Shown in pieces: positions 1 through 27,110 of a stretch of 55,994 nucleotides of DNA. Origin of the DNA: Nemertoderma westbladi (Eukaryota > Animalia > Xenacoelomorpha); the NCBI GenBank assembly GCA_032718475.1, contig JAUCBJ010000610.1, positions 1-55,994 on the forward strand. Direction: 5' to 3'. Position 1 is the stretch's first letter, and every line of letters starts with the position of its first letter. Under the pieces are notes generated by a model. That model did not search any database and had not been told where the DNA came from. It was given only the letters and a program-made list of their open reading frames with translations. The translations under genes were made by a program, and so were the position numbers.

Positions 1-3000
1 CATTAGAAGTATGTGTACAAATAACCGGTCCTTATAAGGGTTCGATTGTATAAATTAATAATAAATAAGGTTGTAATATTCTAAAAACCAGTGTGATCTT
101 AAATGAACTTTAAACAATAAATAGAGATCAGATAACAAATGGACCACACAATTTATTAAAAAACTCGCACCTCTTCGGACTTAATATATGGCTTCAATTT
201 TATTCAACAGTAGATATTTGGGGGAAGTTAGATAAACTGCATTTATGCAGTGAATCTAACTTCCCCCTTCATGATATAATATACCAAAGACACACTCTTT
301 GGAGGACCTGTTGTTTACTATGTAGACTTTGTTCAACCTAAACAACTTAAGTCAGATTAACAATATTATCCTGTAAAATTTCTAAGCAATGACTGGTATG
401 AATAATGCTGATCTTCGAACTATGGTTCTGTAATTAAATTTTATTACTTCAACTTTTATACGGATTTACCAGTGAAAGAAACCTAGAATCCATTATCACA
501 ATGTAACAGTATCAATAACCATATCTATTCTATGTAGATCATAAGAGAGACATCCTTGATTCATATATTATAATTTCCGAGCTGAAATGTTTCGGTGACT
601 ATAACTTACAGGCTTCGTATTATGTACAAACGACTGAGTAGTATATATTAATATTAATGGGTTACCGGTATATAGAACGAGTGTAGACTGGGAGCGAAAA
701 TATATTACATACAATTTCGAGTAATATAAAATTAACGAGTCCAGTTCGTCTCCCCTCGTGTCATTCGACGCATACCCCCCCCCCCCCCCCCCCTCCACAC
801 TTTTCCCTTTACCTCGTGGTCTTTCTTTAAGTATAACTTCATTTTGGGTCCACCTTGGTGGGAAGAAACATTTTTTAAAAACATTCAGTAAGGGCGGCGT
901 TGAGTGAGGTGAATTCGCCGCCCCTCTAAAGGACGCAGTCTACATACTGGACGCGTAGTTACTGCGAAAACGGTGTTCCCCCCCCATTCGACCTATTTCC
1001 AGCCGTACGATTTTCTCGATTTTTCGAGGGGGGACGCGTAATGCCAAAAAAATAAGATTCTTCAGAGCTTTTAGCGAATCTATCGGTTTGACGGACAGTA
1101 CGGACGATTGTCCGTTTTCTTCACGCGAATTCACCATTAGGGTCTATGTAAAAAAAATTAAATATCGCCCCTACCTGCTAGAGGTCGCCCGGAATCGAAA
1201 GAGGGTCTAAAAATTAGATTTCACATATTTTTGTTTTAAAAATTAAGTCGATGGTTTACCGGCTAATGTCCGTCAAATTCGAGAAAACGGACAAAATGAC
1301 TTTGCGGTTTTCACTATAAGTCGGATAATATTAATCGTACGGAGACAAAAGTAACACGTCTGGATATGAGAAGAGTGGTACTACGTTCGTATCGAATGGG
1401 GGTAAGATATTTTTTAATATTTCGGGTCGTAAAAGGGGCCGTAACTTTTCCGTTTTTGTCCGTCATTTTTATATAATTAATATTTCCGAAATTTTTAATT
1501 CGGAAACGCTAGTAGGAATCTGCCAATTCTTTTTCGGAAGGCGTAACAGACCACAGGGGCGACATTCCTATCGAATGGGGGTACAAAAAATATGTCGGCA
1601 AAAGGGTCCAAAAAGGGCCAGAAAGTGATAAAAGGTTTATAACTAATAACTTTTTTATTTTTGACTCTACATGGTTAAGGTACATTTTATACGGTTAATA
1701 TCGATACGAGGAATTCAAATATTCGATTGGTTTTGCTGCGCAAATGATATAAAAAAAATGAGGGCCAATATTAAAATTTCGCGTTTCAAACTGGCTGCGC
1801 GGGAACACGTCTAGCTCGAAAACTACTCAACGTCTGGGAGACGCATTTAAACATTCTTATAGAGCGTTAAATTATCTATCTTTCAGCCTTAGTTACAACG
1901 CCGTAGCTATTATACAACTGGTGCGGCAGACGATCGTGTGAAATAAAATATTTATAAAAAGGGACGAAAAATTTTTTTTTTTTAATAAATCGCTACTCTA
2001 TTATAATTTAGCGTATTGCGCCAAAAGTACATTTAAAATGTAGAAAATTACCTCCGCTACCTTTTTTCTTAACATTTATAATTAAAATTATGAATTTTAA
2101 GGGCCCAAAAATATCGCGTAATTTTGGCCCTTTTTTTCATTTTTTTTTGGGGCCAAAAATGACCCCCTCTCAAAAGATAGAAAAAAAAATTACGGCAAAG
2201 AATATACCAATTTTATTGAATTTAGACCACCAGAACCGAAGTTAGAGCGATTTTAGTGAAAAAATAAAAAAAATTTTTTTTGCAAAAAATTAAGAATGGC
2301 CAATATTGGATTTCGTACCCACGAACTTAGGTTTCATTAACGTGATTGATAACCACTAGACTATGTGACCAAGTGAATTTGAAATTTTCGAGTGACTATT
2401 TTTAAACATCAATAACTTCGGTTCTACTGGGCCGTTTGATCTGAATCTTTTTTCATTGGATAGAGGATAGATTGTAGTGTGTGAAATAGGATACAACTTG
2501 GGAAAAGACGCATGTGCACTTAGTGCAAAATGCACTTAAATAGTGGACATTTTTTCGATATTTCAAACACTATTATTTCCAGTTCTATTGATCGTAGAAT
2601 GTTATTACTTGGGTTAAAATGTAGTTTGGAGTGATTTCTAACTATAATCTTAACATTTGTTTATCTTTTTATGTCTATAAAGTGACTTAAACTGTCCATG
2701 AATATGGTCCAAAATCGCAAATGTCGCGATTTATTAAATTGGATTTTTGACACTTTTAGCGACTGACACTTGATCATGCACCATCGTAGATCGGTAGAGA
2801 ATAGACATAAGTGTGTTAAATAGGAACCACCTTTAGGATCCGCTAAAGTGCACTTGTGCAAATATGGGTGCAAATGTGCAATTTTTTTTAATAAGGTCAA
2901 ATGGTGTATTATTGGGTTCTTTTCGTTGCAGATAATTTATTTTCATATTAATATGTTGTATGGACCTTACTGAGCGCATTAAGAGTATGTGTACAAATAA

Positions 3001-6000
3001 CCGGTCCTTATAAGGGTTCGATTGTATAAATTAATAATAAATAAGGTTGTAATATTCTAAAAACCAGTGTGATCTTAAATGAACTTTAAACAATAAATAG
3101 AGATCAGATAACAAATGGACCAGACAATTTATTAAAAAACTCGAACCTTTTCGGACTTAATATATTGCTTCAATTTTAATCATCAGTGGATATTTGGGGG
3201 AAGTTAGATAAACTGCATTTATGCAGTGAATCTAACTTCCCCCTTCATGATATAATATAACAAAGACACACTCTTTGGAGGACCTGTTGTTTACTATGTA
3301 GACTTTGTTCAACCTAAACAACTTAAGTCAGATTAACAATATTATCCTGTAAAATTTCTAAGCAATGACTGGTATGAATAATGCTGATCTTCGAACTATG
3401 GTTCTGTAATTAAATTTTATTACTTCAACTTTTATACGGATTTACCAGTGAAAGAAACCTAGAATCCATTATCACAATGTAACAGTATCAATAACCATAT
3501 CTATTCTATGTAGATCATAAGAGAGACATCCTTGATTCATATATTATAATTTCCGAGCTGAAATGTTTCGGTGACTATAACTTACAGGCTTCGTATTATG
3601 TACAAACGACTGAGTAGTATATATTAATATTAATGGGTTACCGGTATATAGAACGAGTGTAGACTGGGAGCGAAAATATATTACATACAATTTCGAGTAA
3701 TATAAAATTAACGAGTCCAGTTCGTCTCCCCTCGTGTCATTCGACGCATACCCCCCCCCCCCCCCCCCCCCCCCTCCACGCTTTTCCCTTTACCTCGTGG
3801 TCTTTCTTTAAGTATAACTTCATTTTGGGTCCACCTTGGTGGGATAAATATTTCTCCATTTGACGCAACACCGCCGCGGCCGCTATGAGGGAGGTGAATA
3901 CCGCGGCCGCTCCTAAAGCCGCAGGCCATCGCTAACTATATAGGTTAACTTGGGATTCTGGGGGACTTTTCGATGAAGGAACAGACCAATTTTTTTTATT
4001 TTCGCACCAGGGGAGCGACTCGGAATTCTAAGATATTAGCCACTCTAACATTAGCAAATCTATCCCCTCGACGGACACGGCGGACAAAAAACCGTCATTT
4101 TTTTGACAATTTTAAAAATTTTTTGAAAGGCGCTCTACAGTGGCTCGAAAAAACCCTAGGTTATTGCTTAACCGACGCCGGGATACGATAGAAGGGATTA
4201 ATTAGTGAATTCGTTTTTTTTTTCAAAAAAGATTACCACGCCTTTTTCCCGAAATTGTCCGTCAAAGTTGAAAAAACGGACAAAATGGCTTTGCGGGATC
4301 CGCTCTGACTCGGCTAATATTAATCGTACGGGGACGAAATTAACGCGGTTGGAAAGGGGAAGAGTGGTACTACCTTCGTATCGAATGGGGGTAAGATATT
4401 TATTAATATTTCGGGTGGAAAAAGGGGCCGTAACTTTGTCCGTTTTTTCCATCTTTTTTACATAATTATTATTTCCAAAATTTTTAATTCGACAACGCTA
4501 GTAGGAATCTGCCAATTCTTTTTCGGAAAGCGTAGAAGACCACAGGGGCTACATTCCTATCGAATGGGGGTACAAAAAATATGTAGGCAAAGGGGTCCAA
4601 AAAGGGCCAGAAAATAATAAAAAGTTTATAACTAACAACTTTTTTATTTTTGACTCTTGAAGGTTAAAGTACATTTTATACGGTTAATATCGATACGGGG
4701 AATCCAAATATTCGATTGGTTTTGCCGCGCAAACGATATTAAAAAAATTAGGGCCCAAATTATAATTTCACGCTTCAAACTCGCTTCGCGGGAACTCGTC
4801 TAGCTCGAAAAATACATAAGGTCTGGGAGACTTATTTAAACAGTCTTATAGAGCGTCAAATTATCTATCTTTCAACGGTAGTTACAGCGCCATAGCTATT
4901 ATATAACTGAAGCGGCAGACGATCGTGTGAAATATACTACTTATAAAAAAGGGACGAAAAAATTTTTTTTTAATAAATCGCCATTACATTATAATTTAAC
5001 TTTTTGCGCCAAAAGTTCCTGTAAAATGTAGCAAATTAACTCCACTATCTTTTTTCTTAACATTTATAATTAAAATAACGAGTTTTAAGGGTCGAAAAAT
5101 ATCGCGTAATTTTGGCCCTTTTTTTTCATTTTTTTTGGGGCCAAAAATACCCCCTCTCAAAAGATAGAAAAAAAAATTACGGCAAAGAATATACCAATTT
5201 TATTGAATTTGGAGCACCAGAACCGAAATTTAGTCAAAAATTAAAAATATTTTTTTTTGCAAAAAATTAAGAATGGTCATATTGGGTTTCGAACCCACGA
5301 ACTTAAGTATCGTTAACGTGATTGATTACCACTAGACTACGTGACCAAGAGAATTTGAAATTTTCGAGTGATTATTTTTAAACATCAATAACTTCTGTTC
5401 TACTGGGCCGTTTGATCTGAAACTTTTTTCATTGGATAGAGGATAGATTGTAGTGTGTGAAATAGGATACAACTTGGGAAAAGACGCATGTGCACTTAGT
5501 GCATAATGCACTTAAAAAGTACACATTTTTTCGATATTTCAAACACTATTATTTCCAGTTCCATTCATCGTAGAATGTTATTTTTTGGATTAAAATGTAG
5601 TTTGGAGTGATTTCTAACTATAATCGTAACATTTGTTTAACTTTTTATGTATATAAAGTGACTTAAAATGCCCATGAATATGGTCCAAAATCGCAAATGT
5701 CGCGATTTATTAAATTAGATTTTTTACACTTTTAGTGACTGACACTTGATCATACACCATCGTAGATCGGTAGAGGATAAACATAAGTTTGTTAAATAAG
5801 AACCACCATTACGATCTGCTGAAGTGCACTTTGTACAAATAAGTGTGCAAAAGTGCAAATTTTTTAATAAGGTCAAATTATATAGCATTGGGTTCTTTTC
5901 TTTGCAGATACTTTATTTTCATATTAATATGTTGTTTGGCTCATACTGAGCGCATTAGGGATATGCGTACAAATAAGCGGCCCTTATTAAGGCTTCGATT

Positions 6001-6330
6001 GGGTTAATAAATAAAACATAAGGTTGTAATATTCTAAAAAACCAGTGTGATATTAAATGCACTTTAAACAATAAATAGAGATCAAATAACAAATGGACTA
6101 CACAATTAAAAACTCGCACAATTTTGTACTTATTATATCGCTTCAAATTAATTTAACAGTGGATATTTGGGGGAAGGGGGAAGTTACAGTGTGCATTCGG
6201 GGGAAGTTTGGTGAACTGCATTTATGCAGTGAATCCAAACTTCCCCCTTTTAGATATCGTATACTTAAGACATGCTCGGTTGTCAGGGAAATATTTGTTA
6301 CTGTCACACTTTGCTTCCATTTATCCTATC
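1..6330. repeat. Head-to-tail ~3-kb non-coding repeat (end of unit A 1-~850, unit B ~851-3843, diverged unit C ~3844-6330); probably non-autonomous transposon copies
   Basis: The sequence at 1 recurs at 2977 and 5953 (period ~2976). 1-850 and 2977-3843 are nearly identical, while 1270-2976 vs 4270-5950 is visibly more diverged. No long ORF. Family not identified. Confidence 0.85.
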
Positions 6331-6835: not shown

Positions 6836-7228
6836 CTTTCTCTCGGTTTGTAGTCTTTAATAAATTGTACTACTTTATTCTGAGCTACTTGTAATTTACA
6901 TTTAGGCTGTTTGGTTAAGCCTTCATACCAAGAAGAACAGGCATAGTCCATGTGACACTGTATTAAAGAAGGGCAAAGTAACTTGCGGGAATCGGTGTTT
7001 AAACTATTTTTATTTCTGTATAGAAACCTAAGCCTACTGTTAACTTTCGAGAAAATATTTTTCACTGTGCTTTCCCCTGATAAGCAGTTATCCAATGTGG
7101 CGCCTAAATATTTAACTTCCTTTTTATTTTCAATCTTATGTCCATTACTAGTGACTTCAAACTTAGTTACCTTCTTTAACTTTCTTTTGGAACCAAACAA
7201 AATACTTTCAGTCTTACCGTAGTGAATG
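6836..7228 (-). pseudogene. CR1/L2-group LINE RT, C-terminal part (left half of a LINE split by BEL/Pao-1)
   Basis: Translation KEVKYLGATLDNCLS...LIQCHMDYACSSWY...LQVAQNK. It joins in frame with 22930 across the TSD: WLVDNKLSIHYGKTESILFGSK. Confidence 0.9.
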
Positions 7229-8376
7229 TGTAAAAGCTTTTGCGTAATTAACCGGTTATTTCCCCTTAAAGTACTCTGTAGTTGGTTTGCCAGGCATAAA
7301 AAGGCCGTGTCCTTGCTGTACTGGTGTTTTAGAGGACATAAAAGTCATTTCTTCTGTATTTGTACTTTAGAGGACATAATCCGCAATCTCGTGACGCGAT
7401 AAGCTAGATACTCTTGAAAACAGTGTCGCTACCATGACGACGGCTAGCAGCTGATATTGCCACGTCGACATTTCTTTGTTTCTTTGTTCTCTCGTTGTTC
7501 GGTTGACCAATCAGAGCGTTTTTTGTCTCTGTGTTGGAGGTGTATACAGAACTCAGAAGTTCAGTGTTATGTTTTTGCCCAGAGCCTAAGAACACTGGCT
7601 TTTGGCACCTCCGTGTTTTCAGTCTTTAGTCTTACATTAGTAGGCTTAATTATAGAACGTATATCTGTTATCACAAGTTAACTCATTCACTTAATAATCA
7701 TTTATACATTAATATTACTGCTTTTAATGTCGGTTATTCGTTATATTTGCTGATGAAATATTATATCGGAATACTGATCAATAGTCAGACACCCCACCTT
7801 CTTGATATACTAAAGGTTAGAGAGACCGGTTACAGATAAACGATTGCGACCTATGTTAAGTGGTTTGAAGTGAATCTAATGCTATTTCATATGCCCAACA
7901 TAAATTGTCTGTTGCTCTCTTTATACGTGACTAAATTTAGTGAAGGTCGGCAGATTAGTGTGCAGTATTGTGCAGCATTGTGTATGAGTGTAACTGATAA
8001 CAAAGCATCTCCTAAAGAATGCGCCATATACGTGAATCTATAGCCTTTTCGTTGTGTCTAGTTTAAGTCATAACTCTGTTTACATATTTAGAGCGCCATG
8101 TCCTAAAGGAACTGTTGATATTTCCCGAAAGTGAATAATATTTGTCAGAGATTATATATTACGATCAGTCGAATAATACAGTAGGCTTACACCATCAATC
8201 ATTAAGCTCCGAACTCAGTCTCCCGGGTATATCCAACGGGTGAATGATTGCGCATAGACTGGCTTCGGCTAATGTAGTGTATTAAATACTCGTCATAGGC
8301 TAAAGACTATCTATCATCCAAAAGACATTCTAATTTAGGCAGGTTAAACTGTCAAAGGTCTTCAAAAGCGCAAACA
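7229..8376 (+). repeat. 5' LTR of BEL/Pao-1
   Basis: Direct repeat of 21777-22924 with about 6 substitutions seen by eye; TGTAAAAG...GCAAACA. Confidence 0.97.
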
Positions 8377-8387
8377 ATAACAGATAT
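8377..8387 (+). promoter_or_regulatory. Non-tRNA primer-binding site of BEL/Pao-1 (complementary to LTR 7661-7671)
   Basis: ATAACAGATAT abuts the LTR and has no TGG; its reverse complement ATATCTGTTAT is at 7661-7671. Confidence 0.7.
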
Positions 8388-8659
8388 TGCTTCTGGATTG
8401 TGGTGTAAGCAATCTAGTCGAAAGTACCGGTCGACCGGTAACCAGTAGGCCTGACTGCCTGATCATCCGGACCGGTACCTACAGTAGTACAGGTACAGCA
8501 GTATTATTCGATTGTGGTATTGTATACCGGTAGGCTGTTTAAGAGATTAGGGACTGTACACCCCTTGTTTCTTTTGGAGCTTACTTATTTCTGTCAGTTT
8601 TATTTATTTGTAGGCCAGTATTGAGCAGAAGGCGTGTAAGCCTGCTCAGATTGTACAGA

Positions 8660-9230
8660 TAATTTGTAGGCTCGACTGTTGGCTAACTGTTGATATGGTC
8701 TGAACGGATTGCAGTGCATGTAGAGTGTATGTCCGATAAAGAACGGTTAGGAAGTAGGGGCAGCCATAGCTGTAAGGTAAACCCCCATCTAAAGAATAAG
8801 TCGTACTACTGGGTTAGAACGCATACTACTTAACCATTTCGGAGTCTACATGTCCTGTGGTTTATTTAGGCTTGATAGGAGTCCGCCAGCGTTTGGTCTG
8901 TACTTTGTTTGTGTAGTCTGTACGGGTAGCGTATAATTTTATTTAGGTAATTTGTAGGCTGGATAGTTGTCTGGCTGCTGTTGGGTTTGAGGAAATTTCG
9001 GTGTGTGTAAAGCATCTGTCCGATAAAGAACGGTTAGGAAGTAGGGGCAGCCATAGCTGTAAGGTAAACCCTCATCTAAAGAATAAGTCGTACTACTGGG
9101 TTAGAACGCATACTACTTAACCATTTCGGAGTCTGCATATACCGTGGTTTGTTTAGGCTTGATAGTAGTCTGTCAGTATTTGGTCTGCATTTTGTTTGAG
9201 TAGCTTGTACGCGTAGCGTAATATTTATTA
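8660..9230 (+). repeat. Tandem ~287-bp duplication in the BEL/Pao-1 5' leader
   Basis: Core 8730-8847 matches 9017-9134 with 1 mismatch; the flanks are diverged but alignable. Confidence 0.9.
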
Positions 9231-10563
9231 TTCAGAGTTTATGCGATTATTCGCAACATTCATTCCCCAAGTTTATTCCTACAGTAATTGTGTTTGTTAT
9301 ACATACCGTTATAGTTAAACTAACCCCGGTACTACATCAGGGCTGCTCGGCGTAGGTAAAGACTGGTGATTTTGTGCACCGGTCACTCCAGCAGATGCCG
9401 TGGTTCTTTTAGCTGTTCAAGTATTTTTAACTACTAATTATTTGTCGTACAAGTACTTGTACCTAATTTAGGATTTAGTGTACAGTGCTTTCCGAAAGCA
9501 ATTAGTGTGTAGGCAGTGTATTTGTGTTGTAAAGTGGTTAATAGGCACGTTGGTTCTGGTAGACCGCGGTAATTAACTTCTAGGTAGGGACACTCCGTGA
9601 TACATAACGTAGTACCTATAGCGATACGGTTATAGGTCGTCAGGCGGTGGTATTTTCCTATCTGGACAACGCAGTATATTTACTACTACTTATTATTTTC
9701 AAATACCGTAGTAACCTGTCCGTTGTAATAACCAGATATTCTAACCCTTTGTTAGGCTGGTTAGTAGACTTCTTGTAAAATTACCCTAAAAAATTCGTAT
9801 TTGTGTATTTGTAATTAAATTTTGTGTTTATTTAGAGATTGTAATCTCAACCAGAATTGTACGTAATTTGTAGTATTAAGTAACTTAGGTAAATTAGAAT
9901 TATTTGTTTTAGTGTCTAACAAGTAGCACTCCACTGAGAGCGCACAGCTTATACGTAGTGACTCCCCCAGAAATAATAACATTTATTTCAAACATTGACA
10001 AAACCCATTAAACGGGTATATATATATATTATAAATCAACTCAAACGATTTATAAATAGTAGGCCTGCCATACAACAATTAGGAACAATATAAGTTGGAC
10101 TACTGCTTAAATAACGGTAATAAAGTAAGTTAAAGTAACCAAGTAACCCTTAAAATTCAGAAATTCAATTATTTAAAATAATTGATATACCGGTATTTGC
10201 AATAGGCCTATTATATATTTATATACTTGTGCTGAAATCATACCGGTGTTCTGTAATTAATTCTAGTTAATAATTATACTTATATATACTATAAGTGTAA
10301 ACTGCATACCGGTATCCACGATAGGCCTATTATATATTTATATATATTTGTGCTAAAATTATATACCGGTATTTTGTGAAAAACCTAGTCTGTCATAATA
10401 CTTATATATACAATAAGCATACCGGTATTCTAATATTATATATATATCACGCTACACTGAGTAGCAGTATCGGTAATTAATTACTAGGCTAGCAGTTAAT
10501 TCTGAATTACTAGACTTGCTTAGACTGTAATATAGCAGTAGGCATTCAACTGTGCAAACCAAC

Positions 10564-13500
10564 ATGTCTGATACTAAGCAGAACCTGTCAGACAGTTTAT
10601 TAGATGTAACTATCTGCGACTCAGATAGAGGTGTAGAACCGTCTAGTCCTAAGTTCAGTTCACCTCCCACTGTGAGGAAGGTCATCCCTCCAGTAGTAAT
10701 AACAGAACCTAGGCTGGTCCAACATCATAGGTCTATCATAGGCACTCGAGCCCAGGTCAAGCGGGACCAAGAAGCAGCGGAACAGCAACAACCCGCGAGC
10801 CAAGAACTTATTTCTCAGCGGCCCGACCGCTCCAGTAGTGAAGATACTGTAGAGCTGACACCCGAGCGTGGAGCAAGGATGTCTGATGCGGTTTATTCGG
10901 ATCCCCTTCTCATCCTTCCTGCAGCCGTACTCACTAGGTTATTGATCGCGGTGGAAGAACACCAGATCGATTGGGCGAGAAGTAAGCGATCAACTAAAGA
11001 TAGTTATGAGGGATACACAAGGGAAGAACTGACGTCTATGGTCGAGTCGCAATGGAACTTCCCCGGACCCGGACTCCCGTTTGATTTATCAGAAGCTGCC
11101 TGGGAAGACATACACCGGATGGGAGTAGCCAAGGAAACCATCGATCCAGCTGTGTGGAAGAGGTCTGCAGCCGGATACGCACAGGGATTCTTCAGCTCTA
11201 TGGAGCGAGTAAAAGAACAACTGTTTCAACAACCTCAAGGACCTCAAGAGCAGGGACAACTGCTTTATCAAGTTAGAGAAAGAATTCTGCGAATCAGGCT
11301 AATATTATCAGCCTTTGAAGAGGCTTCTAAAAGAAGACAAGACACGTCGTTGCAAGTTGCCGTAAAGACTTGGTTTCAACGGGTGAGTCGCCAGGTTCAA
11401 GGAACAGCTCAGTGGAAAGCTCAGCTGGAGGAACGCTCAACCCATGGAGAATCAACAGACGCTACTTTTTCCCAAGTGGAAAGTGAAGCGACGGCAGAGA
11501 AACCGCGTAAGAGGGATGCCATTGACATCTATCTGTCAGACTATCAGCGTTTTTTGGGAGATGAAGAGTTGAGGAGAAGGCTAGATGGACTTAGCCCTAA
11601 TAGTGAAGGAGCCCAGCGTGTGTTGGACGCAATTGATGTGGATAGGTTAGCGGTGAACCAAGCTAAATTCGATGAACAACTCCGCATCGCTAGAGACCAA
11701 GAAGAAAGGGTGAAGAAAAAACGCATAGAAGAAAGAAAGAAAGCAGCAGTAGCAGCTGCAGAAGCCGAAAGGAAAGCAGCCGAAGAGGAAAGTAAAGCAG
11801 CCGAAATGGAAAGAAAAGCGGCAGCGGCAGCGGCAGAGGCAGAAGCGAAAAGAAAAGCGACAGCGGCAGAGGCAGAAGCGAAAAGAACGGAGCGGATAGC
11901 GGCTGAAGAGATTGCCCAATTAGAATTGGAAAATATTCAGGAGAATCAAGACTGCATAAATAAACAGTTAACAGCTAGTAATATGCAGATGATGAATCGA
12001 TCTACTCCCAAAAGACAGGGATATACATCATCTGAGGAAGGCGATACCACCGATACTGAAGGCAAAGGAAATAGATCTCACCTAAGCAGACGTAAAAGAA
12101 CATCCCACCGTCAGAAATTGCCTGATTTGCCTCCAGCTGTTAGAAGGCAACTAAATAACAACTTAGGTAGTACAGAACCCACAGACCAAATAATTACAAT
12201 AGAGAGACTCCCTACTATAGTAGATGAGCCTGAAATAATTAGGCCTGTTCCCGAAGCCACCCTTTCGGTCGTAGAGACACCTGTACTCCCTGAACCTACC
12301 TCTCAATTCCCTTTGCACAGCACTAAGCTACCTGTGCCCAGCAGAACAGCCCATGAAACAGTTCATGCCCTGGACTCCGAGCGAAATATTCAAGATTTGT
12401 CGCCCGTTGTCCCTCGTCCGCCCGCTACAACGTTGGCGAATCCCGCTTCGGCGGTTGAATGGGTGGATGAGAGACGACGGGGGATGGATCTCCTGCTCGG
12501 ACAGATGCAGGAGACCGTTCAGCAATTCAAGGGCACAGTAAGGGAAAGTAGATTAGAGTTGCAAGAAGTGCAGCAAAGTATCGCGCTAGAACGCGATAAA
12601 TTAGTAAATACACAAAAGGGTATACCAACACCCCCCATAACAATGTGTCAACCTGTTAGGTCTGAAGTATCTCATGCGCAAGGTGTGGAGCCTACACGCA
12701 TCTATACTGCTAGCGAAGTAGAAACTCCTATAGTGAACCCTATTAAGAGTAATTATAGACCTGTTGATAATGATATTCCCTATAGACCGGATCATAATCC
12801 GAGAAATTTATATACCGATAACTCGATATTAAATAACACGATGGCCCAAGAAAGTTTTACGCGTCAAATGGCTAGAACCGAAGCCCGGCAAGCAGTAAAG
12901 GTGGGAGAGATCGTCAAGTTCAATGGAGATGAGATGAAATGGTTACCTTTTAATGAATATTACAAAGATAACATACAGAACTCTGTGCTATCTAATGGAG
13001 AGAAACTTAGGTTCCTCATCGAGTGCTTGGAAGGATCTCCCAAGTTAATGGCGTTAAAGTTTATTGGACATCCAGACGGATTAAGACAAGTTTGGGATAC
13101 ACTAAACATCAGGTATGGTAATAGGAATAACATAGCTGGGTATTTGTATGCAAAGTTAGTGGCGCCCCGAAAGTTTATTAGCAGCGGAATTATAGAGTTT
13201 TCCGATGAGATTCAGGAGATCTGCAGACAATTAGATTGGCTAGGTAAGTCTCATGAGTATCAGAATGCTATGGTTATTAGAGCAGTGGCTTCTACTTTAC
13301 CGAAGGGTGGAGTAGGTACACGCTGGGATAAGAAAGTGTTATATATGATGGAACAACAACGACGAGACCCTACCATGGCTGATCTCATGTCATTCCTAGA
13401 TGGAGAAGTGAAATTACAGCTCCTGAAACTGTCCAGAGAGAAGACACCGGAAAACAAGGTAAGTGAAAAACCCTTCGCTAGGAGAAAGGTAACACCAGTG

Positions 13501-14229
13501 TGTTATACAGATGATGGCGAAAGCCAGACTTCTCAAGGAGAAGATAGCGGGAAAGACACTGACAGATCTTATTACATAAATAAAATGCCTAAAGATCAGG
13601 TAAGTAAATTCAAGTCTCGAACAAATGACAGGAGAGAACAGGTAAGAAAAACTCCTCCTACGTCTCCCAAGAGAATTCAGGTGAGAAAGCCCGAAGAAAA
13701 AGCAAGTGTACACAATGTTACTCAGAGTAAGGTAAGTAACATCAAACCGAAATGTGCGCTATGTGATGGGACCCATCGCTTAAATATGTGTGATGAATTT
13801 CTAAAGAAATCATTAACTGAGAGACGTGAAGTCATGTGGGACAAGCGGTTGTGCTATAATTGCCTCAGACAAGGACACCAACGGCGAACCTATTACTCTG
13901 ACACAAGATGTGCCAAGTGCGGTGCGAAACATCATATCTTGTTGCACACTGAATTCGAGCGAAATAGTCCGAGTCAGGTAAGTGATTCCGAACTACATGT
14001 CCAATTCAGTGATGTGAACGACACTGATCAATCTGAGATGGAAGGATTCTATACGGATGAGTTCTCCGACGAAAACGAATCCTGTTACATGATAAATACC
14101 ACAGTGTATCGAGCACTCATTTATGAAAAAGATACAGACATTGACCTCGCTCTAACTACTTCTGATCGACAACCATCTTGGAAAGCGCCAACTTCCAATG
14201 TAGGGATTAGAGAATTTCCTGTGGTATAG
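10564..14229 (+). CDS. gag: BEL/Pao-1 Gag (coiled-coil N-terminus, DUF1759-like capsid region, Cys/His knuckles)
   Basis: Motifs FNGDEMKWLPF...KLRFLIECLEG...L.IRYG, CALCDGTH..C and CYNCLRQGH....Y(C lost)....CAKCGAKHHILLH. First ATG at 10564; ends at an in-frame TAG. Confidence 0.9.
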   Translation: MSDTKQNLSDSLLDVTICDSDRGVEPSSPKFSSPPTVRKVIPPVVITEPRLVQHHRSIIGTRAQVKRDQEAAEQQQPASQELISQRPDRSSSEDTVELTPERGARMSDAVYSDPLLILPAAVLTRLLIAVEEHQIDWARSKRSTKDSYEGYTREELTSMVESQWNFPGPGLPFDLSEAAWEDIHRMGVAKETIDPAVWKRSAAGYAQGFFSSMERVKEQLFQQPQGPQEQGQLLYQVRERILRIRLILSAFEEASKRRQDTSLQVAVKTWFQRVSRQVQGTAQWKAQLEERSTHGESTDATFSQVESEATAEKPRKRDAIDIYLSDYQRFLGDEELRRRLDGLSPNSEGAQRVLDAIDVDRLAVNQAKFDEQLRIARDQEERVKKKRIEERKKAAVAAAEAERKAAEEESKAAEMERKAAAAAAEAEAKRKATAAEAEAKRTERIAAEEIAQLELENIQENQDCINKQLTASNMQMMNRSTPKRQGYTSSEEGDTTDTEGKGNRSHLSRRKRTSHRQKLPDLPPAVRRQLNNNLGSTEPTDQIITIERLPTIVDEPEIIRPVPEATLSVVETPVLPEPTSQFPLHSTKLPVPSRTAHETVHALDSERNIQDLSPVVPRPPATTLANPASAVEWVDERRRGMDLLLGQMQETVQQFKGTVRESRLELQEVQQSIALERDKLVNTQKGIPTPPITMCQPVRSEVSHAQGVEPTRIYTASEVETPIVNPIKSNYRPVDNDIPYRPDHNPRNLYTDNSILNNTMAQESFTRQMARTEARQAVKVGEIVKFNGDEMKWLPFNEYYKDNIQNSVLSNGEKLRFLIECLEGSPKLMALKFIGHPDGLRQVWDTLNIRYGNRNNIAGYLYAKLVAPRKFISSGIIEFSDEIQEICRQLDWLGKSHEYQNAMVIRAVASTLPKGGVGTRWDKKVLYMMEQQRRDPTMADLMSFLDGEVKLQLLKLSREKTPENKVSEKPFARRKVTPVCYTDDGESQTSQGEDSGKDTDRSYYINKMPKDQVSKFKSRTNDRREQVRKTPPTSPKRIQVRKPEEKASVHNVTQSKVSNIKPKCALCDGTHRLNMCDEFLKKSLTERREVMWDKRLCYNCLRQGHQRRTYYSDTRCAKCGAKHHILLHTEFERNSPSQVSDSELHVQFSDVNDTDQSEMEGFYTDEFSDENESCYMINTTVYRALIYEKDTDIDLALTTSDRQPSWKAPTSNVGIREFPVV

Positions 14230-17200
14230 GTAAGGGTCCACGGACCAAAAAGGAGTTATGTAGTGAACGCCCTCCTTGACTCCGGTAGTACAGGAACATT
14301 CATCGACAAAGAGCTAGCCGAAGACATATTCGCTGGACAACCCAAGTTCCGAACTAAGCTAAACATGTCAGGGATTATGCAAGTTTGGAAATCCACAGTA
14401 ACAGCGGATTATTATGTAGGTGCGTTGTCCACCCCCCAGGACGAACTAGGAGAACATAGCATAAGGTCAGTGAAAATGGTGGCTATAAAGAACTTCGCTA
14501 CTACTCAAGCAGACCTTTATAATTGGGACGAGGATGAGAGCATCCAACATCTCAAGATACCTCGATTCCAGACAGATTATCCTGGAGTGCAAATACTCAT
14601 CGGCCAAAACGCGCATGAGGCGCTCGAGACATTGGAGAAACGGCCTGCTCAACCGCAGCCACTACAGACCTATGCGGTTAGAACTAGAGTAGGTTGGTAC
14701 TTTACTGGCCCTTCCCGTAGAACTCTCATAGAAAGATTACCGAAAGATCAGGTATATCAAGTGCGAGAATGGGAAGTTGAGAACAGTGAGTTCGACGATC
14801 CAACTGAGGGAACTCCATACTCCTCAGACAACGACGATATACATCAACTCTTTGATGAGGAGAATGCCATCGATCTCCTTAAGGAGAGCGAGACTTGGCA
14901 AAATCAAGTGAACTTATGTCAACTCCTTCTCCCATCCGAGCGAGACGACTATAACGACGAGCTTAATGACGTCATTGAACGTTATAATGCCAAGACTCGG
15001 GATGAACACGCCGTGAGATTCTTTACTCAAGAGGTCGTAGAGCCCAACTCCTACGATAAGGCCCTATCGGTGGAGGAAGAAAGAGCCAAGCAGATCCAAG
15101 CGACAACTACTCGTTTTCTTAAAGATCAAGGTAGATATGAGATCGGTCTTCTTTTCCGAAAGCGAGAACCAAAGTTCATTAACAACAGACCTTTGGCGGA
15201 GAAAAGAATTGCTCAACTACATCGACGCCTTACGGCAAATTCTTCAGCTAAAGAAATGTATCAAACGCAGTTGAAGAAGTTTATTAGCAAGGGATATGCG
15301 GAGCTACTACCGGAAGAAACACCCATAACTGAGAGAACGTATTATTTAACTCACCATTACGTTCCCAAACCCGGTAAACCCCATGAAGTACGAGTGGTGT
15401 TTGACGGTTCCGCCCTTTATATGGGCCAATCTCTTAATTCTGAATTGTTACCCGGACCCAACTTACTCCAATCCTTGTTGGGAATACTACTAAGATTAAG
15501 ACAATACTCCATTGCTTTCGCCTCAGATATAGAAGGCATGTTCTTACAAGTCAAAGCGCTGGATAGGGATCGAGATAGCCTACGATTTTTGTGGTGGCCT
15601 GAAGGAGACCTCAATAAGAAACCTGTGGAGTATTGGATGACCATCCAAGCCTTTGGGATAATCTCGAGCCCTTCAAACGCCTGTTCCGTGGTGCGCACCA
15701 CTGCGGATGACAACCGAGACGCCTTCTCTAAAGAAGTGATCGACAATATCAAACGAGACATCTACATGGATGATAATCTGAAGTCCCTTCCATCAGTCGA
15801 AGAAGCCATTGAGGTCGCTAAAGGAACGGTGGAATGCTTAAAGAAAGGTGGATTTCGATTAACTAAATTCACCAGCAACTCCCGTGAGTTTCTGGAGTCG
15901 ATCCCGGTAGAAGATCGAGGAACAAAAGACCTAGATCTAATAAAGGATGATCTCCCAGAAACTAAGACCCTTGGTTTGAAATGGGACACAGAAAGAGATA
16001 TCCTGTTTTTCCAACTAAAACAGCGAGATAATCCAGTTCGGACTAAACGGATTTGTTTAAGTATCCTGAGCACTTATTTCGATCCATTGGGATTTATTAG
16101 CCCAGTTATATTAATTGCTCGGAGTTTAGTACAACAAATGTGGCTTGAAAACCACTCATGGGACGATCCACTTAAGGGAGAATTATTAAAGAAGTGGATG
16201 AAATGGGAAGATTCTCTACCAGCCATCGAAAACTTTATAATTTCCCGTTCATATTTTGGTCATGTTCTCCCTACGTATTCATATCAACTCCATGTGTTTG
16301 GAGACGCCAGCAATATGGGAATCGGTATAGTAGCCTACCTAAGGGTGGAAACTCCGGACGGAATTAAAGTCGCCTTGGTTACCTCTAAGGCATTTAATAA
16401 ACAACAAGTTGAAAGTTCCTCGAGCGGAGTTAAAAGCGGCTCTATACGCTACAGCCATCGGCCGGAATATAACAGAACAGATCGACTATCCCCTGGAGAA
16501 AACTGTCTATTGGACCGACGCTTTACTCGTGTTGGAGTATATAACCAATGAAGTCTGTCAGTTCAGCGTCTTCGTTACCAACAGAGTAGCTATTATACTC
16601 AGTCGCACGACGATGGATCAATGGAGACATTGCCCCGGAACGATTAATCCAGCAGACATCGCTTCCAGGGGAGCAACTCCACAAGAACTGGTAGATACTC
16701 CAGACTGGTTAGGTGGACCCGACTTCCTCTACAAAGAAGAAGAAGAATGGCCTCCTCATCTTACTACAGCAGAAATTAGACAGGCCAAGGGAGCGGAGAA
16801 AGTCAAACCTAAAACTCAGGCGAGTAAATCGAAGTTATTCAAACCCACAGTGGATCTGTCTGTACTACATACTTCCGGAGACGACGCTTTGGATCAGAAA
16901 CCCACAGCCACAAATAAACCCATTGTGGAAATCCGTGATAAGGATTGGAAATCTGGTATACCAGACGTCTCGCAAGGACTCTCACCTCTTCTGCAGAGAG
17001 CGATACATCACTACAGTTCCTGGAATCGGCTCTGTAAGGCTGTTACATATTTAAAGAGATGTTTTCACCATCACTACTCTGGGATGAAAACAAAGGGTGA
17101 TACCGCTCCAATCACATCAGTGCAGGTCCATGTTATTAAAGATCTTCCCCCATATAAGATACCCACCAGGTTTCTGAAGGAGAAGATCAGTTATCAGGAG

Positions 17201-18648
17201 CATGAAGAAACCAACAAACAGATGCTGAGACTCTTACAATGCTATGAAGATTCCGATAAGTATTTCCTGTTGTTGAGAAATCCACAGATGCGCTTAAGGG
17301 ATCGTTTCTCTAGCACAATGATAGATGGGTTGATACGTGTTGGAGGAAGGTTAACGAATGCCCCATTATCCTTTGATACTAAGTTCCCCATACTCATTAG
17401 AAATCTTGAAATACAAGTCAAGATGATTGTAGATGTTCACAGCAAACTTTATCATGCTGGTAGAGAACGAGTTCTTAGTGAAATTCGAACTCGCTATTAT
17501 TTTTATAAACCCCGTAGAGCTCTGAACCAAGTTCTTAGGAACTGTATACCCTGTAGGAAAGCATTCAGTAGGCCTTTAACACAGAGAGAGGCAGAATTAC
17601 CTAGGGAACGAGTAAGCTTTTATGAACCACCCTTTACTAATACCGGTGTGGATTTATTTGGCCCTATTGAAGTATATCGTGCTAGGACTATAGTCAAGAG
17701 ATGGTGTGTAATCTTTGTTTGTATGACTTGTAGAGCCATCCATCTCGATATGGTGAACGATTTATCTACCAACAGCTTTCTATTAAGCTTACGACGACAG
17801 ATCGCTCGCTTTGGCACTAGTAACACGATGAGATCTGATAAGGGAACAAACTTCATTGGTGCCAACAATGAAATCAAAGCTTACGTCAAAGATTGGAACC
17901 AAAGACAGGTGGACGACCAACTACGAGTAACAGCGTCTAGTTGGACCTTCAACGCCGCCGACGCCCCTTGGTGGGGAGGAAGTTGGGAGAGATTAATAAG
18001 AAGTGTGAAGACGGCATTTCATTTTATAGTGCCTTGTCGCGCTTATCTCACCGACGAACTTTTGCGGACGTTAATGGAAGAAATCGCTGCCTATCTCAAC
18101 GAGAGACCGCTTATGCCAGTCTCATCGAGTCCCGATTCCCTGGAGGCGCTAACACCCGCGCACTTCCTGCTGAAGAAACCTGTAGCCATGCTCCCACAAT
18201 CGGAAATCACAGACGGAGACGAATACTGCCGACAAACTTGGCAACTCATGCAGTTGTTATCCCGTCGTTTCGTGACCATTTCGAAAAACATTATCTGCCC
18301 ACGCTACAACTTCGAACTAAGTGGTTTGCGCAGCAAGAAAACGTCAGCGCTGGAGACATGGTGCTTATTGTGGATGTGGATCTTCCACGTAAGCGGTGGC
18401 AGACAGGTCGTATAATCGAGACGCACATCTCGGATGACGGTTTGGTGCGATCGGTAGAACTCGTCGTCATGCGACGTAACTTCAAGAAACCGGGAATTGT
18501 CTTCGAGACGCAGCAGCTCAATCGCCCAGTGGGTCGTTTATGTTTACTGGAAAGAGACAGAGAACTCTCCGGAAACTATGGGAGACAAGATACTCTTCCC
18601 ACGACCACTTCCCTAATCCAACAAACATCTAGGGACTCCCCAACTTAA
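14230..18648 (+). pseudogene. pol: BEL/Pao-1 Pol (PR, RT, RNase H, IN, C-terminal DUF5641-like domain) with two frameshifts
   Basis: Motifs LLDSGS, RVVFD, YMDD, HVFGDAS, PRAEL, NPADIASRG, H..LYH..C..C, GVDLFGP/SDKGTNF/WERL and DGLVRSV...RPV.RL. The frame changes at ~16395 and ~18270. Confidence 0.92.
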
Positions 18649-19203
18649 CAACGGCTGGAGTGGGTGTGTGACCATATTATTTTATATTTGTATTTGTTTT
18701 ATTTTTATATTTATGTATGTATTATTATGTAATTTTATTTTAATCGTTTTATTTAATTTTATTTAGTAGTATGGTATTTTAGAGATTATTTAGTAGATTA
18801 GTGCAATATATATTCGCGTTTATTATTTAATTACGTATATTATATATTAAGTGCGACGGCGAGAAATAATTCTTTTTTCTCTTTCCTTACTGTCCGTAGT
18901 ACATTATAAATGTGTGACTACAGTAAGATGAAATGTCCGTACTTATTAAAGTACAATAAAGCCACTACTATATTCAAGTATTATTGGTAGGCAGAGTATT
19001 AGGAATGCAAAGTTCAGATCCTCATGTCTCGGCTAAACCAAGCTCTGGGTAGACCTTGGAAATGACTTGCCTCTTCACACTGACATTGCTTCGTGCGATA
19101 TTGCTCTCATACCGTATATTAAATAATACATATAGTAGCGTGATGTCCCTTTAACAGTAGCGTATAACGCAAAATAAATCTGTTAAACCCTTTGACCATC
19201 TGT

Positions 19204-19495
19204 AATTCTAGTCGATTAAGATATCGCGGCACCCACCGATATACTTGAAAGACAAATTTCTAGAATCAATGGTTAACGTCCCCAGACAAGTTCTGGAATA
19301 AACTGGTGCCCATCCTAAATATTAATTATTAATATTTACAAAAATCTGTCAAATATCAGATCCGTTAAAATTCTAGTCGATTAAGATATCGTAGCATTTA
19401 CCGATACTCTTAAAAGGACAAAATTCCTAGAATCAAGGATCCCAGTCCCCAGACACGTTCTGGAATAAAATTGTGTCTATTTAACATTAAATAAT
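19204..19495 (+). repeat. Tandem ~163-bp duplicated hairpin-forming motif in the BEL/Pao-1 3' region
   Basis: AATTCTAGTCGATTAAGATATCG...CTAGAATCAA...GTCCCCAGACA.GTTCTGGAATAAA occurs at ~19204 and ~19368. Confidence 0.85.
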
Positions 19496-20278
19496 AAAAT
19501 TTACGGGAATAAATTTAAATTCAGATATTTCAATGAATTTAATAAATTGTCATTTTATACAATTTATAACATTCCCAAAATTCCATTAATTAATAGATCA
19601 TGGGAGCGGAGATTCACTTTATTAAGTGTATTTGTGTGCGAGAATCTCCAATGTATAGTCAATAGCCGATAAAATTCATAGAATCATGTATAAAGATGAT
19701 ATTGACTATTAAAGACTTACTATTAAATAGCATCCCAGATCTGTATGCATGAGAATTACCCTAATTCTACCGCTAGCTTTCCATAATGTCACCATGGCAA
19801 CAACCACGCTAGAATTAGAAGTGAGTTAAAAGAACAATAAAGGGCTTGCGCATTGAATAGCATAGTGAATAAATAGCGCACCGCTAGTATCCAAGGATAC
19901 ATAATAACAACGTGACATTCTGGAAGGCACTTGACTAACGGACAAATGACCCGAATGTGTGATAGAATGTGTACCATTTGTGACTGTTACGTGGAATTTG
20001 TGCGTTTGTAGGTGAATGTTACTACTAAGGTGTGTTTACAGTAGCGAGTCGCAATTGTGAAAGTAACCCTAACTCTCCAGTAAGAACCTGAAGTATATCT
20101 AAGCCTTTGGGACGGACGGTGGAGTGGCTCGTGCTGGTTGTTGTAGTCGTTGTGCAGCTACGACGTTGGCGATAGGCACATCGGCGAAAGTACACCAGCG
20201 CTGAGGATCTCGCACTGTCCGGGGGCAGAGAGGGGTAGGCAGCGACGCCCGCTCGCCTAAATATAAACTCATTATAAT

Positions 20279-21697
20279 ATGGATAAATTTATATAGCAGA
20301 TATGATTGAGTTGATAGAAGATGATCTTGGTATCAGGGAGCGATATACTCTACCTTTACAAGCGTTTGTTGATAGCTTGATACACGGCGACGCTTAACTA
20401 CTGGTCATCCTATCGATTTACACGATACGGACAATGTCGACACCAAAAGGGAAATGGTACGATTGAAATATCCTACCCAGCGGAGGCGGAACGATAAACC
20501 GAGAATGGAACACGATAATTCTATTCGAAACAGACTCGAAAGAGAAGACGTTGAGGAGCCGGATAAACGCAGCGACTTCAACGATTATCTGGAATTCCTG
20601 ATAGAAACATATCTCAATATTGCCAGTCAACAAAATCTAGAAACTCGATATCCTCAAGGTATACATCATGACCGCATGGTAGAACTCAAACGGCTCTATT
20701 CCCCTATGATGTATCTTACCGCCGATCGACCGCTACCTGTTGTACCACACCGAATAGCTTCGAACGGATGGAGGAATATTGTAAGCTGGAGAAAGATCAC
20801 TCGCGTTTCCCCTACAAGACGTACGTTTTTGGGTATTATTGCGATGAATGCCCAAGACCCAACCAACAAACGGAAAGACATAAACATCCGCGGAGACGTT
20901 GCTTTAAACACGGTTTTACTCGCTATACTTACGGGAGTTTCGAGCGAAACTTGTTCGATGTATCACCTACGCTCGTTCGACTCAGACGATCCTTAAATAA
21001 ACCAATGATCAGAGTTTCGGAATACTCGATCAGAGCTCCTCATTCCCTAGTGAGACCTCAGACTCTTGATCCTATTAGTATGACGGATCCTCCCGAGCTG
21101 TACTCACTGCTCAAAGATATAGTGTTACCTGAACGATTAGTCGGTGGCACCCCAGTTGTGGGCTTCTTAGATATTAGCCCATCCTACCTAGCCGGATTGG
21201 GACGCGGACATTTAATATCGCCGTTTAACCCTTACCATCGTCCCGGCTTAACACGATATAACCTGTCACCAAAGTGGCGGAGAACGTTGTACCTAACGAG
21301 TTAAACGCTATTCTACAAAGATAAGAAAGGAAACCTGCGTTTGTTCAGATAAACGTAAGTTGTAACAGCAAGTCCAAGCGATAAACGAATTGTCTTTATC
21401 TCAGTTCGATTGTGAAATCCAGAATCTCTAAGAAGATATCGAACTTAGACAACCCCATTCTCTGCGAGAGTTTTTGGATGAACGTATCCAGCTACGAGCG
21501 GAGGAAAATCAGCTCGAGGAGAAGCATATCGAAACGGCAGATACCCCGACCATAATCCTACACCTTCTGATGCAATCATATTGCACCCTTCACCCAGGAT
21601 TTATAGCCCTCCTAGTAAAGTGGCTCGCCCCAAAGAGAAAAGGACTCTTGCTAGCCTCAAAAGGCTGCGTAAACGCCGTCCGCGTAAGAAAGACTAA
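20279..21697 (+). pseudogene. Decayed accessory ORF(s) between pol and the 3' LTR of BEL/Pao-1; function unknown
   Basis: Coding-like base composition; overlapping ORFs 20454-20996, 20768-21304 and 21474+; Cys/His cluster; basic tail KRLRKRRPRKKD*; several stops and frameshifts. Confidence 0.5.
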
Positions 21698-21776
21698 CTG
21701 TTTAGAGTATTTTTATATTTTAGAAACTGTGATTTGTTATATTTTATAGACTTAAATACCCATTTTCTGGGAGCGG

Positions 21777-22924
21777 TGTAAAAGCTTTTGCGTAATTAAC
21801 CGGTTATTTCCCCTTAAAGTACTCTGTAGTTGGTTTGCCAGGCATAAAAAGGCCGTGTCCTTGCTGTACTGGTGTTTTAGAGGACATAAAAGTCATTTCT
21901 TCTGTATTTGTACTTTAGAGGACATAATCCGCAATCTCGTGACGCGATAAGCTAGATACTCTTGAAAACAGTGTCGCTACCACGACGACGGCTAGCAGCT
22001 GATATTGCCACGTCGACATTTCTTTGTTTCTTTGTTCTCTCGTTGTTCGGTTGACCAATCAGAGCGTTTTTTGTCTCTGTGTTGGAGGTGTATACAGAAC
22101 TCAGTAGTTCAGTGTTATGTTTTTGCCCAGAGCCTAAGAACACCGGCTTTTGGCACCTCCGTGTTTTCAGTCTTTAGTCTTACATTAGTAGGCTTAATTA
22201 TAGAACGTATATCTGTTATCACAAGTTAACTCATTCACTTAATAATCATTTATACATTAATATTACTGCTTTTAATGTCGGTTATTCGTTATATTTGCTG
22301 ATGAAATATTATATCGGAATACTGATCAATAGTCAGACACCCCACCTTCTTGATATACTAAAGGTTAGAGAGACCGGTTACAGATAAACGATTGCGACCT
22401 ATGTTAAGTGGTTTGAAGTGAATCTAATGCTATTTCATATGCCCAACATAAATTGTCTGTTGCTCTCTTTATACGTGACTAAATTTAGTGAAGGTCGGCA
22501 GATTAGTGTGCTGTATTGTGCAGCATTGTGTATGAGTGTAACTGATAACAAAGCATATCCTAAAGAATGCGCCATATACGTGAATCTATAGCCTTTTCGT
22601 TGTGTCTAGTTTAAGTCATAACTCTGTTTACATATTTAGAGCGCCATGTCCTAAAGGAACTGTTGATATTTCCCGAAAGTGAATAATATTTGTCAGAGAT
22701 TATATATTACGATCAGTCGAATAATACAGTAGGCTTACACCATCAATCATTAAGCTCCGAACTCAGTCTCCCGGGTATATCCAACGGGTGAATGATTGCG
22801 CATAGACTGGCTTCGGCTAATGTAGTGTATTAAATACTCGTCATAGGCTAAAGACTATCTATCATCCAAAAGACATTCTAATTTTGGCAGGTTAAACTGT
22901 CAAAGGTCTTCAAAAGCGCAAACA
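21777..22924 (+). repeat. 3' LTR of BEL/Pao-1
   Basis: Repeat of 7229-8376, preceded by a PPT and followed by TSD GAATG. Confidence 0.97.
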
Positions 22925-22929
22925 GAATG

Positions 22930-26122: not shown

Positions 26123-26548
26123 GAACCTTCCACTGTATTACATAATGTGGTGATGACCCATAATTTGGTGTCAAAAGTGAAAAAAAAGGTTTTTAGTTAT
26201 GAACTGTTAAACCGAGTAGCAAGATTTATGAACACAGTTCGTATGATGTTATCTTTGTAATATTAACAACAACAATATAGCTATTGCATCATATATATAC
26301 GAATATATACATCATATACGAAACAACCCTGAATATAGCGAAGAGTCTTTGCAGAGTTGATGATAAAACAAAGTAAAGCACTCAACTATTCCCACGCAGT
26401 TAGTATTCCTATACACAATTCCGGGTGTAATCCGGGCTCCTTTACTAAGTGTTGCGGGAAGTGTCAACTTACGCAGGAGATTAGTTCGTTAGTGGATACA
26501 TTGTCTTTATACGCAGTTTCAGTTAGTACCAATAAAACAAGAGTTAAT

Positions 26549-26770
26549 TAGATAATGTTTACAGTACTGTATGTTTTACATAACTCAATTACTGTGGTTA
26601 TTGTTATGTACCTGTAGGCTCACCACATGTATGACAGTACTAACCTGCACTGCATGTGCACGTATGTATTATTCATATTCAGACTTTAGTAATACAACTG
26701 TACTAGCGATCATTGCGATTACTCGTAATGACTTATGATAATATTCGCTATTATGCATCATATTTATCTA
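26549..26770 (+). repeat. Gypsy 5' LTR (TAGATAA...TTATCTA)
   Basis: Identical by eye to 32344-32565; 7-bp terminal inverted repeat. Confidence 0.96.
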
Positions 26771-26783
26771 TGATCGCTGTTGT
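26771..26783 (+). promoter_or_regulatory. Non-tRNA primer-binding site of the Gypsy element (complementary to LTR 26694-26712)
   Basis: TGATCGCT pairs with AGCGATCA (26705-26712); GTTGT pairs with ACAAC (26694-26698). Confidence 0.6.
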
Positions 26784-27110
26784 TATTAAATTGCTGAACT
26801 GTGCACTGTGATGATATATACTGATACGCCGACTATCAGAAGTAAAGGAAATATACTGGTACACCGATTACCAGTAATCCATCATTGCAAAGTCACCTAC
26901 GCATTACCAGTACGCCGATTATCGGGAGGCACTGCCCGCATTACTAGAACACTACCGGTACACTGTTTATCGGAACGTATTACCGGTACGCCGATTACCG
27001 GAAAACGTTATTGTACTAGGCAGCTAGGCCTACTGCTGTACTAGTACGCTGACCAAAGCGCCGATTATTTACAATTAAGCCCTAGGCTGCTAGGCTAATT
27101 TTCATTAATT

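Follow-up and report, generated by a model that had tools for sequence, protein, structure and literature searches.

Tf1 begins reverse transcription from its own RNA: the first 11 bases pair with its primer-binding site (PBS), and RNase H cuts the primer free, a mode of self-priming treated as established in the relevant sections of the published account (PMC7175516). A survey of plant LTR retrotransposons, in the portion that deals with priming, mentions self-priming in Tf1/sushi, Tcn1, and TAR alone and recognizes it by at least 10 complementary bases starting 0 to 5 nt after the LTR (PMC6317226). The ICTV description of the Belpaoviridae instead specifies an 18-nt PBS for tRNA-Arg or tRNA-Gly and a size of 4.2 to 10 kb, and describes their replication as little understood (PMC8742986). 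Which of hairpin and tRNA priming is the older in LTR elements is a question raised in a further paper (PMC3601003).

Word searches of 5 BEL/Pao papers (PMC554778, PMC3118150, PMC6238403, PMC8220671, and PMC2774666) returned no account of BEL/Pao priming in the text that they covered. Neither BEL/Pao self-priming nor a splice-built primer came up in searches of the open literature, although subscription papers, Repbase reports, or supplements may hold one. Some Cer elements of C. elegans are reported to encode their own tRNA-like primer, which is a different device.

The window analyzed here is a stretch of 55,994 nucleotides from Nemertoderma westbladi (contig JAUCBJ010000610.1) that contains 2 BEL/Pao elements, BEL1 and BEL2. 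At the edge of the 5′ LTR of BEL1 lies an exact complement of a segment within that LTR, with no TGG, and the same relation recurs in different letters across a group of related elements.

Anatomy and classification of BEL1

The features that define BEL1 are as follows.

7229–22924, plus strand: whole element, a young BEL/Pao retrotransposon of 15.7 kb
7224–7228, plus strand: left target-site duplication, GAATG
22925–22929, plus strand: right target-site duplication, GAATG
7229–8376, plus strand: 5′ LTR, 1148 bp, with TG...CA ends
10531–14229, plus strand: gag-containing frame with DUF1759, terminated by a stop codon
14230–16551, plus strand: protease (DSGS), reverse transcriptase (YMDD), and RNase H (Pfam Peptidase_A17)
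16343–18648, plus strand: integrase region in 2 more frames (Integrase_H2C2, DUF5641)
21768–21776, plus strand: purine-rich tract directly before the 3′ LTR
21777–22924, plus strand: 3′ LTR, including a second copy of the 11-mer discussed below at 22209–22219

Comparison of the window with itself gives 6 differences between the 2 LTRs (99.5% alike), and a single contig of run X1, in which 7223 is followed by 22925, shows the insertion site empty. BEL1 is a recent insertion, its LTRs being nearly identical and an empty allele occurring in X1. Its coding region is broken into 4 pieces by a stop codon at 14227–14229 and by frame changes within 16343–16551 and 17941–18415.

The order of Pfam families is that of BEL/Pao (DUF1759, Peptidase_A17 at 1.9e-28, Integrase_H2C2, and DUF5641), with the catalytic motifs DSGS, YMDD, and DAS. 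PF05380 is present in all 120 matches listed; the closest named proteins among these listed matches, at approximately 32% to 41% identity, belong to nemerteans, echinoderms, a sea anemone, and fish, and no clade-named reference (Sinbad/Sailor, Suzu, Tas, BEL, Pao, Dan, or Flow) is among them. Pol has the BEL/Pao order PR-RT-RH-IN, and the LTR falls within the 0.2 to 1.2 kb given for the group and is accompanied by a target duplication and a polypurine tract. At 15.7 kb the element exceeds the 4.2 to 10 kb range, and where the ICTV description has a tRNA-Arg or tRNA-Gly PBS, TGG does not occur in the 16 nt next to the LTR end. BEL1 is therefore assigned to BEL/Pao through its proteins and not through the described priming. 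It does not have the Ty3/gypsy chromovirus-type Pol of the Tf1/sushi group, its Pfam families being those of BEL/Pao.

A further 3.1 kb (18649–21776) separates pol from the 3′ LTR and contains overlapping frames of 206 and 210 aa as well as a short frame with a basic end. Frames in this region had no Pfam match and no Atlas match from 0.9, and the 206-aa frame (20376–20996) had no weighty match; they are possibly a decayed accessory gene. The leader (8377–10530, approximately 2.2 kb) contains a 287-bp spaced duplication (8657–9226), a shorter duplication (10187–10417), and 5 GTAAG donor-like sites, the first at 8405. Directly upstream of BEL1 is a tandem repeat (1–6272) with units of approximately 2976 bp and a palindromic stretch near 220–267.

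An 11-base complement at the edge of the BEL1 LTR

Three short segments are at issue.

7661–7671, plus strand: candidate self-primer, 5′ arm ATATCTGTTAT, with a predicted cut after 7671
8377–8387, plus strand: candidate PBS, 3′ arm ATAACAGATAT, complementary to 7661–7671 and without TGG
7654–7657, plus strand: AGAA, possible 4-bp outer helix with 8391–8394, not above chance

The first-pass annotation had described an 11-bp duplex between LTR and PBS that ends exactly at the LTR boundary, and both statements hold. ATATCTGTTAT (7661–7671) is the exact reverse complement of ATAACAGATAT (8377–8387), and the LTR end at 8376 is fixed by the divergence of the LTR copies and by the GAATG duplication. 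Because the LTR copies part at 8376, with GAATG at 7224–7228 and 22925–22929, the 3′ arm opens at the first non-LTR base. Pairing stops at this boundary, as had been claimed, the next inner pair (C7672/A8376) being mismatched; the next outer pair is a mismatch as well. The loop, put earlier at about 700 nt, measures 705 nt, more than 3 times the loops of the other 20 elements in the comparison below (44–216 nt). The resumption of the helix outside the duplex fared less well: the bases of AGAA (7654–7657) and TTCT (8391–8394) are present, but the outer flanks of BEL1 pair no better than shuffles (p = 0.22), at a level equalled in 17 of 38 cross-family pairs.

An exact 11-mer at offset 0 from the LTR end arose in 9 of 5,000 dinucleotide shuffles of the BEL1 LTR, and in 21 of 5,000 when offsets 0–3 were allowed; a lenient energy score that accepts G-U pairs and offsets 0–4 gives p = 0.04. 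Apart from the pair 7661–7671/8377–8387, no long-loop inverted repeat of 11 bases occurs in 7227–8500.

A TGG 17 nt downstream of the LTR was judged too distant to serve as a tRNA site, and a 6-base likeness to a tRNA-Asn anticodon loop was dismissed as too short. Rfam matched nothing in 7100–10600, and ARAGORN found no tRNA genes in the window. In run X1, related contigs depart from the window shortly past 8383, and one departs after 7654; the run, which consists of contigs only and contains 0.16 of the words, leaves 7664–7787 without cover and shows no intron-like joint in the LTR.

Most related elements match their own LTRs

The search for relatives used 47 natural proteins in alignment. 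Of the 519 metagenome loci confirmed, which come from part of the collection, the best 80 were combined with 19 loci from genome contigs, probably animal DNA within those assemblies, to give 99; 2 scans of viral contigs returned no relative. The 19 genome-contig loci (L081–L099) are BEL/Pao elements, some complete with LTRs, on contigs filed as bacterial MAGs, likely through host-animal contamination. From the 99 loci, 23 were used, yielding 24 rows (L091 gives 2) and 26 with BEL1 and BEL2. The 5′ LTR end is fixed by 2 LTR copies in 19 of the relatives' rows, or 21 with BEL1 and BEL2, and was placed by terminal repeat or likeness in L002, L088, L023, L027, and L039 (the last one base late). 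The other loci were left out either for an end that could not be placed or for a family already represented (L001, L017, L029, L057, L061, L096).

When rows were scored by the energy of a contiguous helix alone, 8 of 26 passed and split primers were missed. Several partial arms in that output started right after a pyrimidine-rich AG, which led to a test that admits an intron in the primer. This test counts strict Watson-Crick pairs from offsets 0–4, contiguous or across one GTRW..YAG junction, with a threshold of at least 10. By this measure, 20 of the 26 rows match their own LTR, as against 2 of 632 cross-family pairs. Where both LTR ends are defined, an own-LTR match of 10–15 bases is found in 17 of 21 rows versus none of the 21 host flanks that follow the 3′ LTR, and the relation persists in 15 of 19 relatives when BEL1 and BEL2 are excluded. 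Moving the PBS window of these 21 rows downstream by 10 nt leaves none passing, and by 20 nt, one. Among passing rows, 19 of 20 have a strict Watson-Crick match of 10–12 nt at 0–4 nt from the LTR end, and in 6 rows the match is contiguous: BEL1 (11), BEL2 (12), L025, L056, L059, and L084. Below the threshold are L080, which has TGG; L091b, which is a different element; L023 and L027, whose ends were guessed and which show nothing; and L026 and L085, with 9 and 8 bases. A TGG tRNA-type site occurs in only 1 of 24 comparison rows (L080).

Pairing of the outer flanks exceeds that of shuffles in 19 of 20 rows (p = 0.0004 with one row per family, 15 rows) and the cross-family means in 18 of 20, which suggests that RNA extends upstream of the primer in the relatives; BEL1 and BEL2 singly lack such a signal. 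Inner-flank pairing, the counterpart of the Tf1 U5 stem, was not above the cross-family level (8 of 20 rows, p = 0.68). The 3′ end of the primer tends towards A-C/T followed by C, with A at −1 in 17 of 21 rows and a following C in 14 of 21, which may reflect a preferred cut site. BEL1 and BEL2 form long branches on a quick RT tree, outside the starred clade to which most comparison rows belong, so that the tree does not establish a single origin.

Putative split primers across predicted LTR introns

Fourteen rows, which represent about 10 families and not 14 independent cases, reach at least 10 pairs only across a predicted junction, with matches of 10–15 bases and introns of 67–1,022 nt. Their donors are GTRAG in 14 of 14 although GTRW sufficed for the test, against a background of GTRAG at 44 of 269 allowed sites in those LTRs. 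Between L082 and L086, which are close on the RT tree, 2 of the 3 exon-1 letters differ and the PBS letters change in step.

The 14 predicted introns all precede the primer's 3′ end. Located between primer and PBS, an intron would be gone after one replication cycle; one lying 5′ of the primer's 3′ end would be recopied from the 3′ LTR and would persist if unspliced there. Persistence would then be possible only 5′ of the primer's 3′ end, which fits the position of all 14. On the quick tree, split and unsplit primers show no clustering (6 and 5 changes, with as few in 181 and 110 of 500 shuffles); in this test L026, with its 9 bases, was labelled unsplit.

The primer of BEL1 is not of the split type, its match being contiguous and its LTR without a GTRAG donor. 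An intron upstream of the primer was also considered on account of acceptor-like sites at 7582–7655, yet it was rejected given the same lack of a donor. Splicing of a 3′ LTR copy may produce intron-free LTRs such as those of BEL1.

BEL2 and a neighboring Gypsy element

The second BEL/Pao element of the window lies on the opposite strand.

26410–44313, minus strand: BEL2, with a GGAAT duplication
43726–44313, minus strand: 5′ LTR, 588 bp
43934–43945, minus strand: 12-nt candidate self-primer, its sequence unrelated to that of BEL1
43714–43725, minus strand: candidate PBS at offset 0, no TGG
34301–42571, minus strand: polyprotein in a single 2756-aa frame

The 12-base match of BEL2 was reached in 2 of 20,000 base shuffles, and the RT-RNase H regions of BEL1 and BEL2 are 38% identical. 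Its LTR pair has one difference, and its LTRs end in TA, not CA. In BEL2, a donor-like site (CAG|GCAAG) lies at position 344 of the LTR and an acceptor-like one immediately 3′ of the primer; they would bound a 40-nt intron whose excision would remove the primer.

A Gypsy element (26549–32565) sits in the 3′ LTR of BEL2, with identical 222-bp LTRs, a TTAAT duplication, and a 1709-aa frame. It lacks TGG, and its first 8 post-LTR bases match its own LTR (28 of 20,000 shuffles), making it a possible third self-priming element of the window. Tandem arrays are found in the BEL2 leader (13-bp units, 43368–43744), flanking the BEL2 5′ LTR (17-bp units, 44169–44950), and at 53732–55590 (146-bp units).

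Transcript ends and folding of the BEL1 LTR

Two features of the LTR bear on the ends of the BEL1 transcript.

7619–7641, plus strand: Initiator-like motifs, function unsupported
8281–8286, plus strand: ATTAAA, a candidate signal for polyadenylation that precedes the LTR end by 96 nt

The Initiator-like TCAGT/TTAGT motifs noted earlier upstream of the match are indeed present at 7619, 7626, and 7637, with a further one in the LTR at 7561, but their spacing to the match is not fixed in 21 elements; comparison of these 21 elements found no TATA or Inr at fixed spacing to the primer. The sequence at 8281 is the sole ATTAAA/AATAAA in the BEL1 LTR, so that the 705-nt loop is likely R for the most part and not U5; as a signal it would make R long and U5 short. 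In 18 of 21 rows a poly(A)-type signal follows the primer, at 44–172 nt from the LTR end.

The folding check that had been proposed did not favor the duplex, the helix 7661–7671/8377–8387 being absent from the minimum-energy fold of 7600–8460. Its modelled probability reaches 0.30–0.48 only with starts at 7654–7661 and a 3′ cut at 8420, is at most 0.02 for earlier starts, and is at most 0.005 for every start when the 3′ cut is at 8500. Since these values vary with the ends chosen, the model neither fixes the start nor favors a cis fold formed without a chaperone.

A proposed self-priming mechanism and its alternatives

By analogy with Tf1, we consider it probable that BEL1 primes reverse transcription with its own RNA stretch 7661–7671 and not with a tRNA. 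BEL1 has the at least 10 perfect pairs between an LTR-edge PBS and an LTR segment that characterize Tf1-type elements. The earlier proposal of a 3′-OH placed after 7671 gains support from BEL2 and from the 17 of 21 elements set against matched controls; the cut and the priming themselves are inferred from Tf1.

If BEL1 behaves as Tf1 does, its genomic RNA would begin at or before 7661, and its RNase H domain would cut this RNA after 7671. Before the cut, 7661–7671 would anneal to 8377–8387, probably chaperoned by Gag, either in cis or from the partner RNA in the particle. Reverse transcriptase would extend the 3′-OH from LTR base 8376 to give approximately 705 nt of strong-stop DNA, which would transfer to the 3′ repeat via the long R. 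Plus-strand synthesis would copy the primer and so rewrite the PBS in each cycle, which would explain the perfect match of 10–12 bases. In many relatives an LTR intron would split the primer and splicing would join the halves, the primers of BEL1 and BEL2 being unsplit. The wider proposal, that a broad animal BEL/Pao branch swapped tRNA priming for a splice-assembled self-primer, with BEL1 and BEL2 as intron-free, ready-made versions and BEL1 bridging approximately 700 nt, is nearly evenly poised in our estimation, with a slight lean in its favor. If true, such elements would need splicing at the 5′ LTR for reverse transcription, with the copy in the 3′ LTR left unspliced.

The primer could instead be the same 11 bases on a short RNA of separate origin, such as the transcript of a 3′ LTR or solo LTR that ends or is cut there, with no fold-back over 705 nt. 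The arm is present in both BEL1 LTRs, the 2 isolated segments pair well (−21.1 kcal/mol), and the fold model does not favor the long-range cis helix, all of which suit a separate RNA; most relatives, however, have short loops and paired flanks (19 of 20 beat shuffles) that fit fold-back, and Tf1, in the sections of the literature on its priming, acts in cis. We regard a separate primer as unlikely. Slightly less likely again is a role for the duplex as a structural or regulatory switch (in packaging, dimerization, or the checking of splicing) by which the site is masked, with priming left to a tRNA half or another small host RNA. Precedents are found in parts of the literature on some Copia elements, which are primed by tRNA halves (PMC10886601), and on fungal GalEa, where the PBS position is taken up by a hairpin without an assigned role (PMC5445492). 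A host primer should keep the PBS constant, but its letters vary by family and track each element's own LTR, even over a splice junction; the match lies 0–4 nt from the LTR end and is strictly Watson-Crick over 10–12 nt in 19 of 20 passing rows, and Rfam gives no match in 7100–10600.

That the BEL1 match is a coincidence beside a decayed or unrecognized PBS seems very improbable. A long A+T-rich LTR, the lenient score of p = 0.04, an outer helix not above chance, and the divergence of related X1 contigs just behind 8383 are what such a coincidence would have in its favor. Against it stand the rarity of the exact match (9 of 5,000 shuffles), the recency of the insertion (nearly identical LTRs, an empty allele), and the sharing of the relation by BEL2 and 15 of 19 paired-end relatives.

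If the matches are indeed primers, a third LTR superfamily self-primes, in animals, and many of its members couple priming to pre-mRNA splicing. The BEL/Pao matches bear on which of hairpin and tRNA priming is the older in LTR elements, as raised in the paper cited above (PMC3601003), and annotation based on the PBS would miss self-primed elements of this kind. Self-priming makes exact, testable predictions, namely a cut after 7671 and the junction coordinates.

Comparison with known systems

Among the Belpaoviridae of the ICTV, BEL1 shares LTRs, gag-pol, the order PR-RT-RH-IN, the BEL/Pao Pfam families, a polypurine tract, and animal relatives, and it differs in having no tRNA-type PBS and a length of 15.7 kb where a tRNA PBS and at most 10 kb are described (PMC8742986). 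Fungal GalEa has a "conserved hairpin site", which like the site in BEL1 is a non-tRNA sequence at the PBS position, but its pairing partner is downstream and, within the part of the report that describes it, no LTR complement was found (PMC5445492). The plant elements Tcn1 (gypsy) and TAR (copia) are predicted to self-prime by the same rule of complementary bases that describes BEL1 and BEL2 (PMC6317226); they belong to other superfamilies and hosts, and a splice-built primer is not described for them in that portion of the survey.

The closest parallel in priming is the Tf1/sushi group, with Tf1 and Tf2 of Schizosaccharomyces pombe and Tj1 of S. japonicus, which like BEL1 have no tRNA site; there too the PBS adjoins the 5′ LTR and complements approximately 11 LTR bases, and an RNase H cut is predicted, according to the relevant sections of 3 papers (PMC7175516, PMC4600332, PMC5341516). 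These sections do not describe for Tf1 a primer that crosses a predicted intron, as found in 14 BEL1 relatives. Tf1/sushi elements are Ty3/gypsy chromoviruses, whereas BEL1 is BEL/Pao with a 705-nt loop. BEL1 is by its proteins a BEL/Pao element that is likely Tf1-like in its priming, and not a member of Tf1/sushi.
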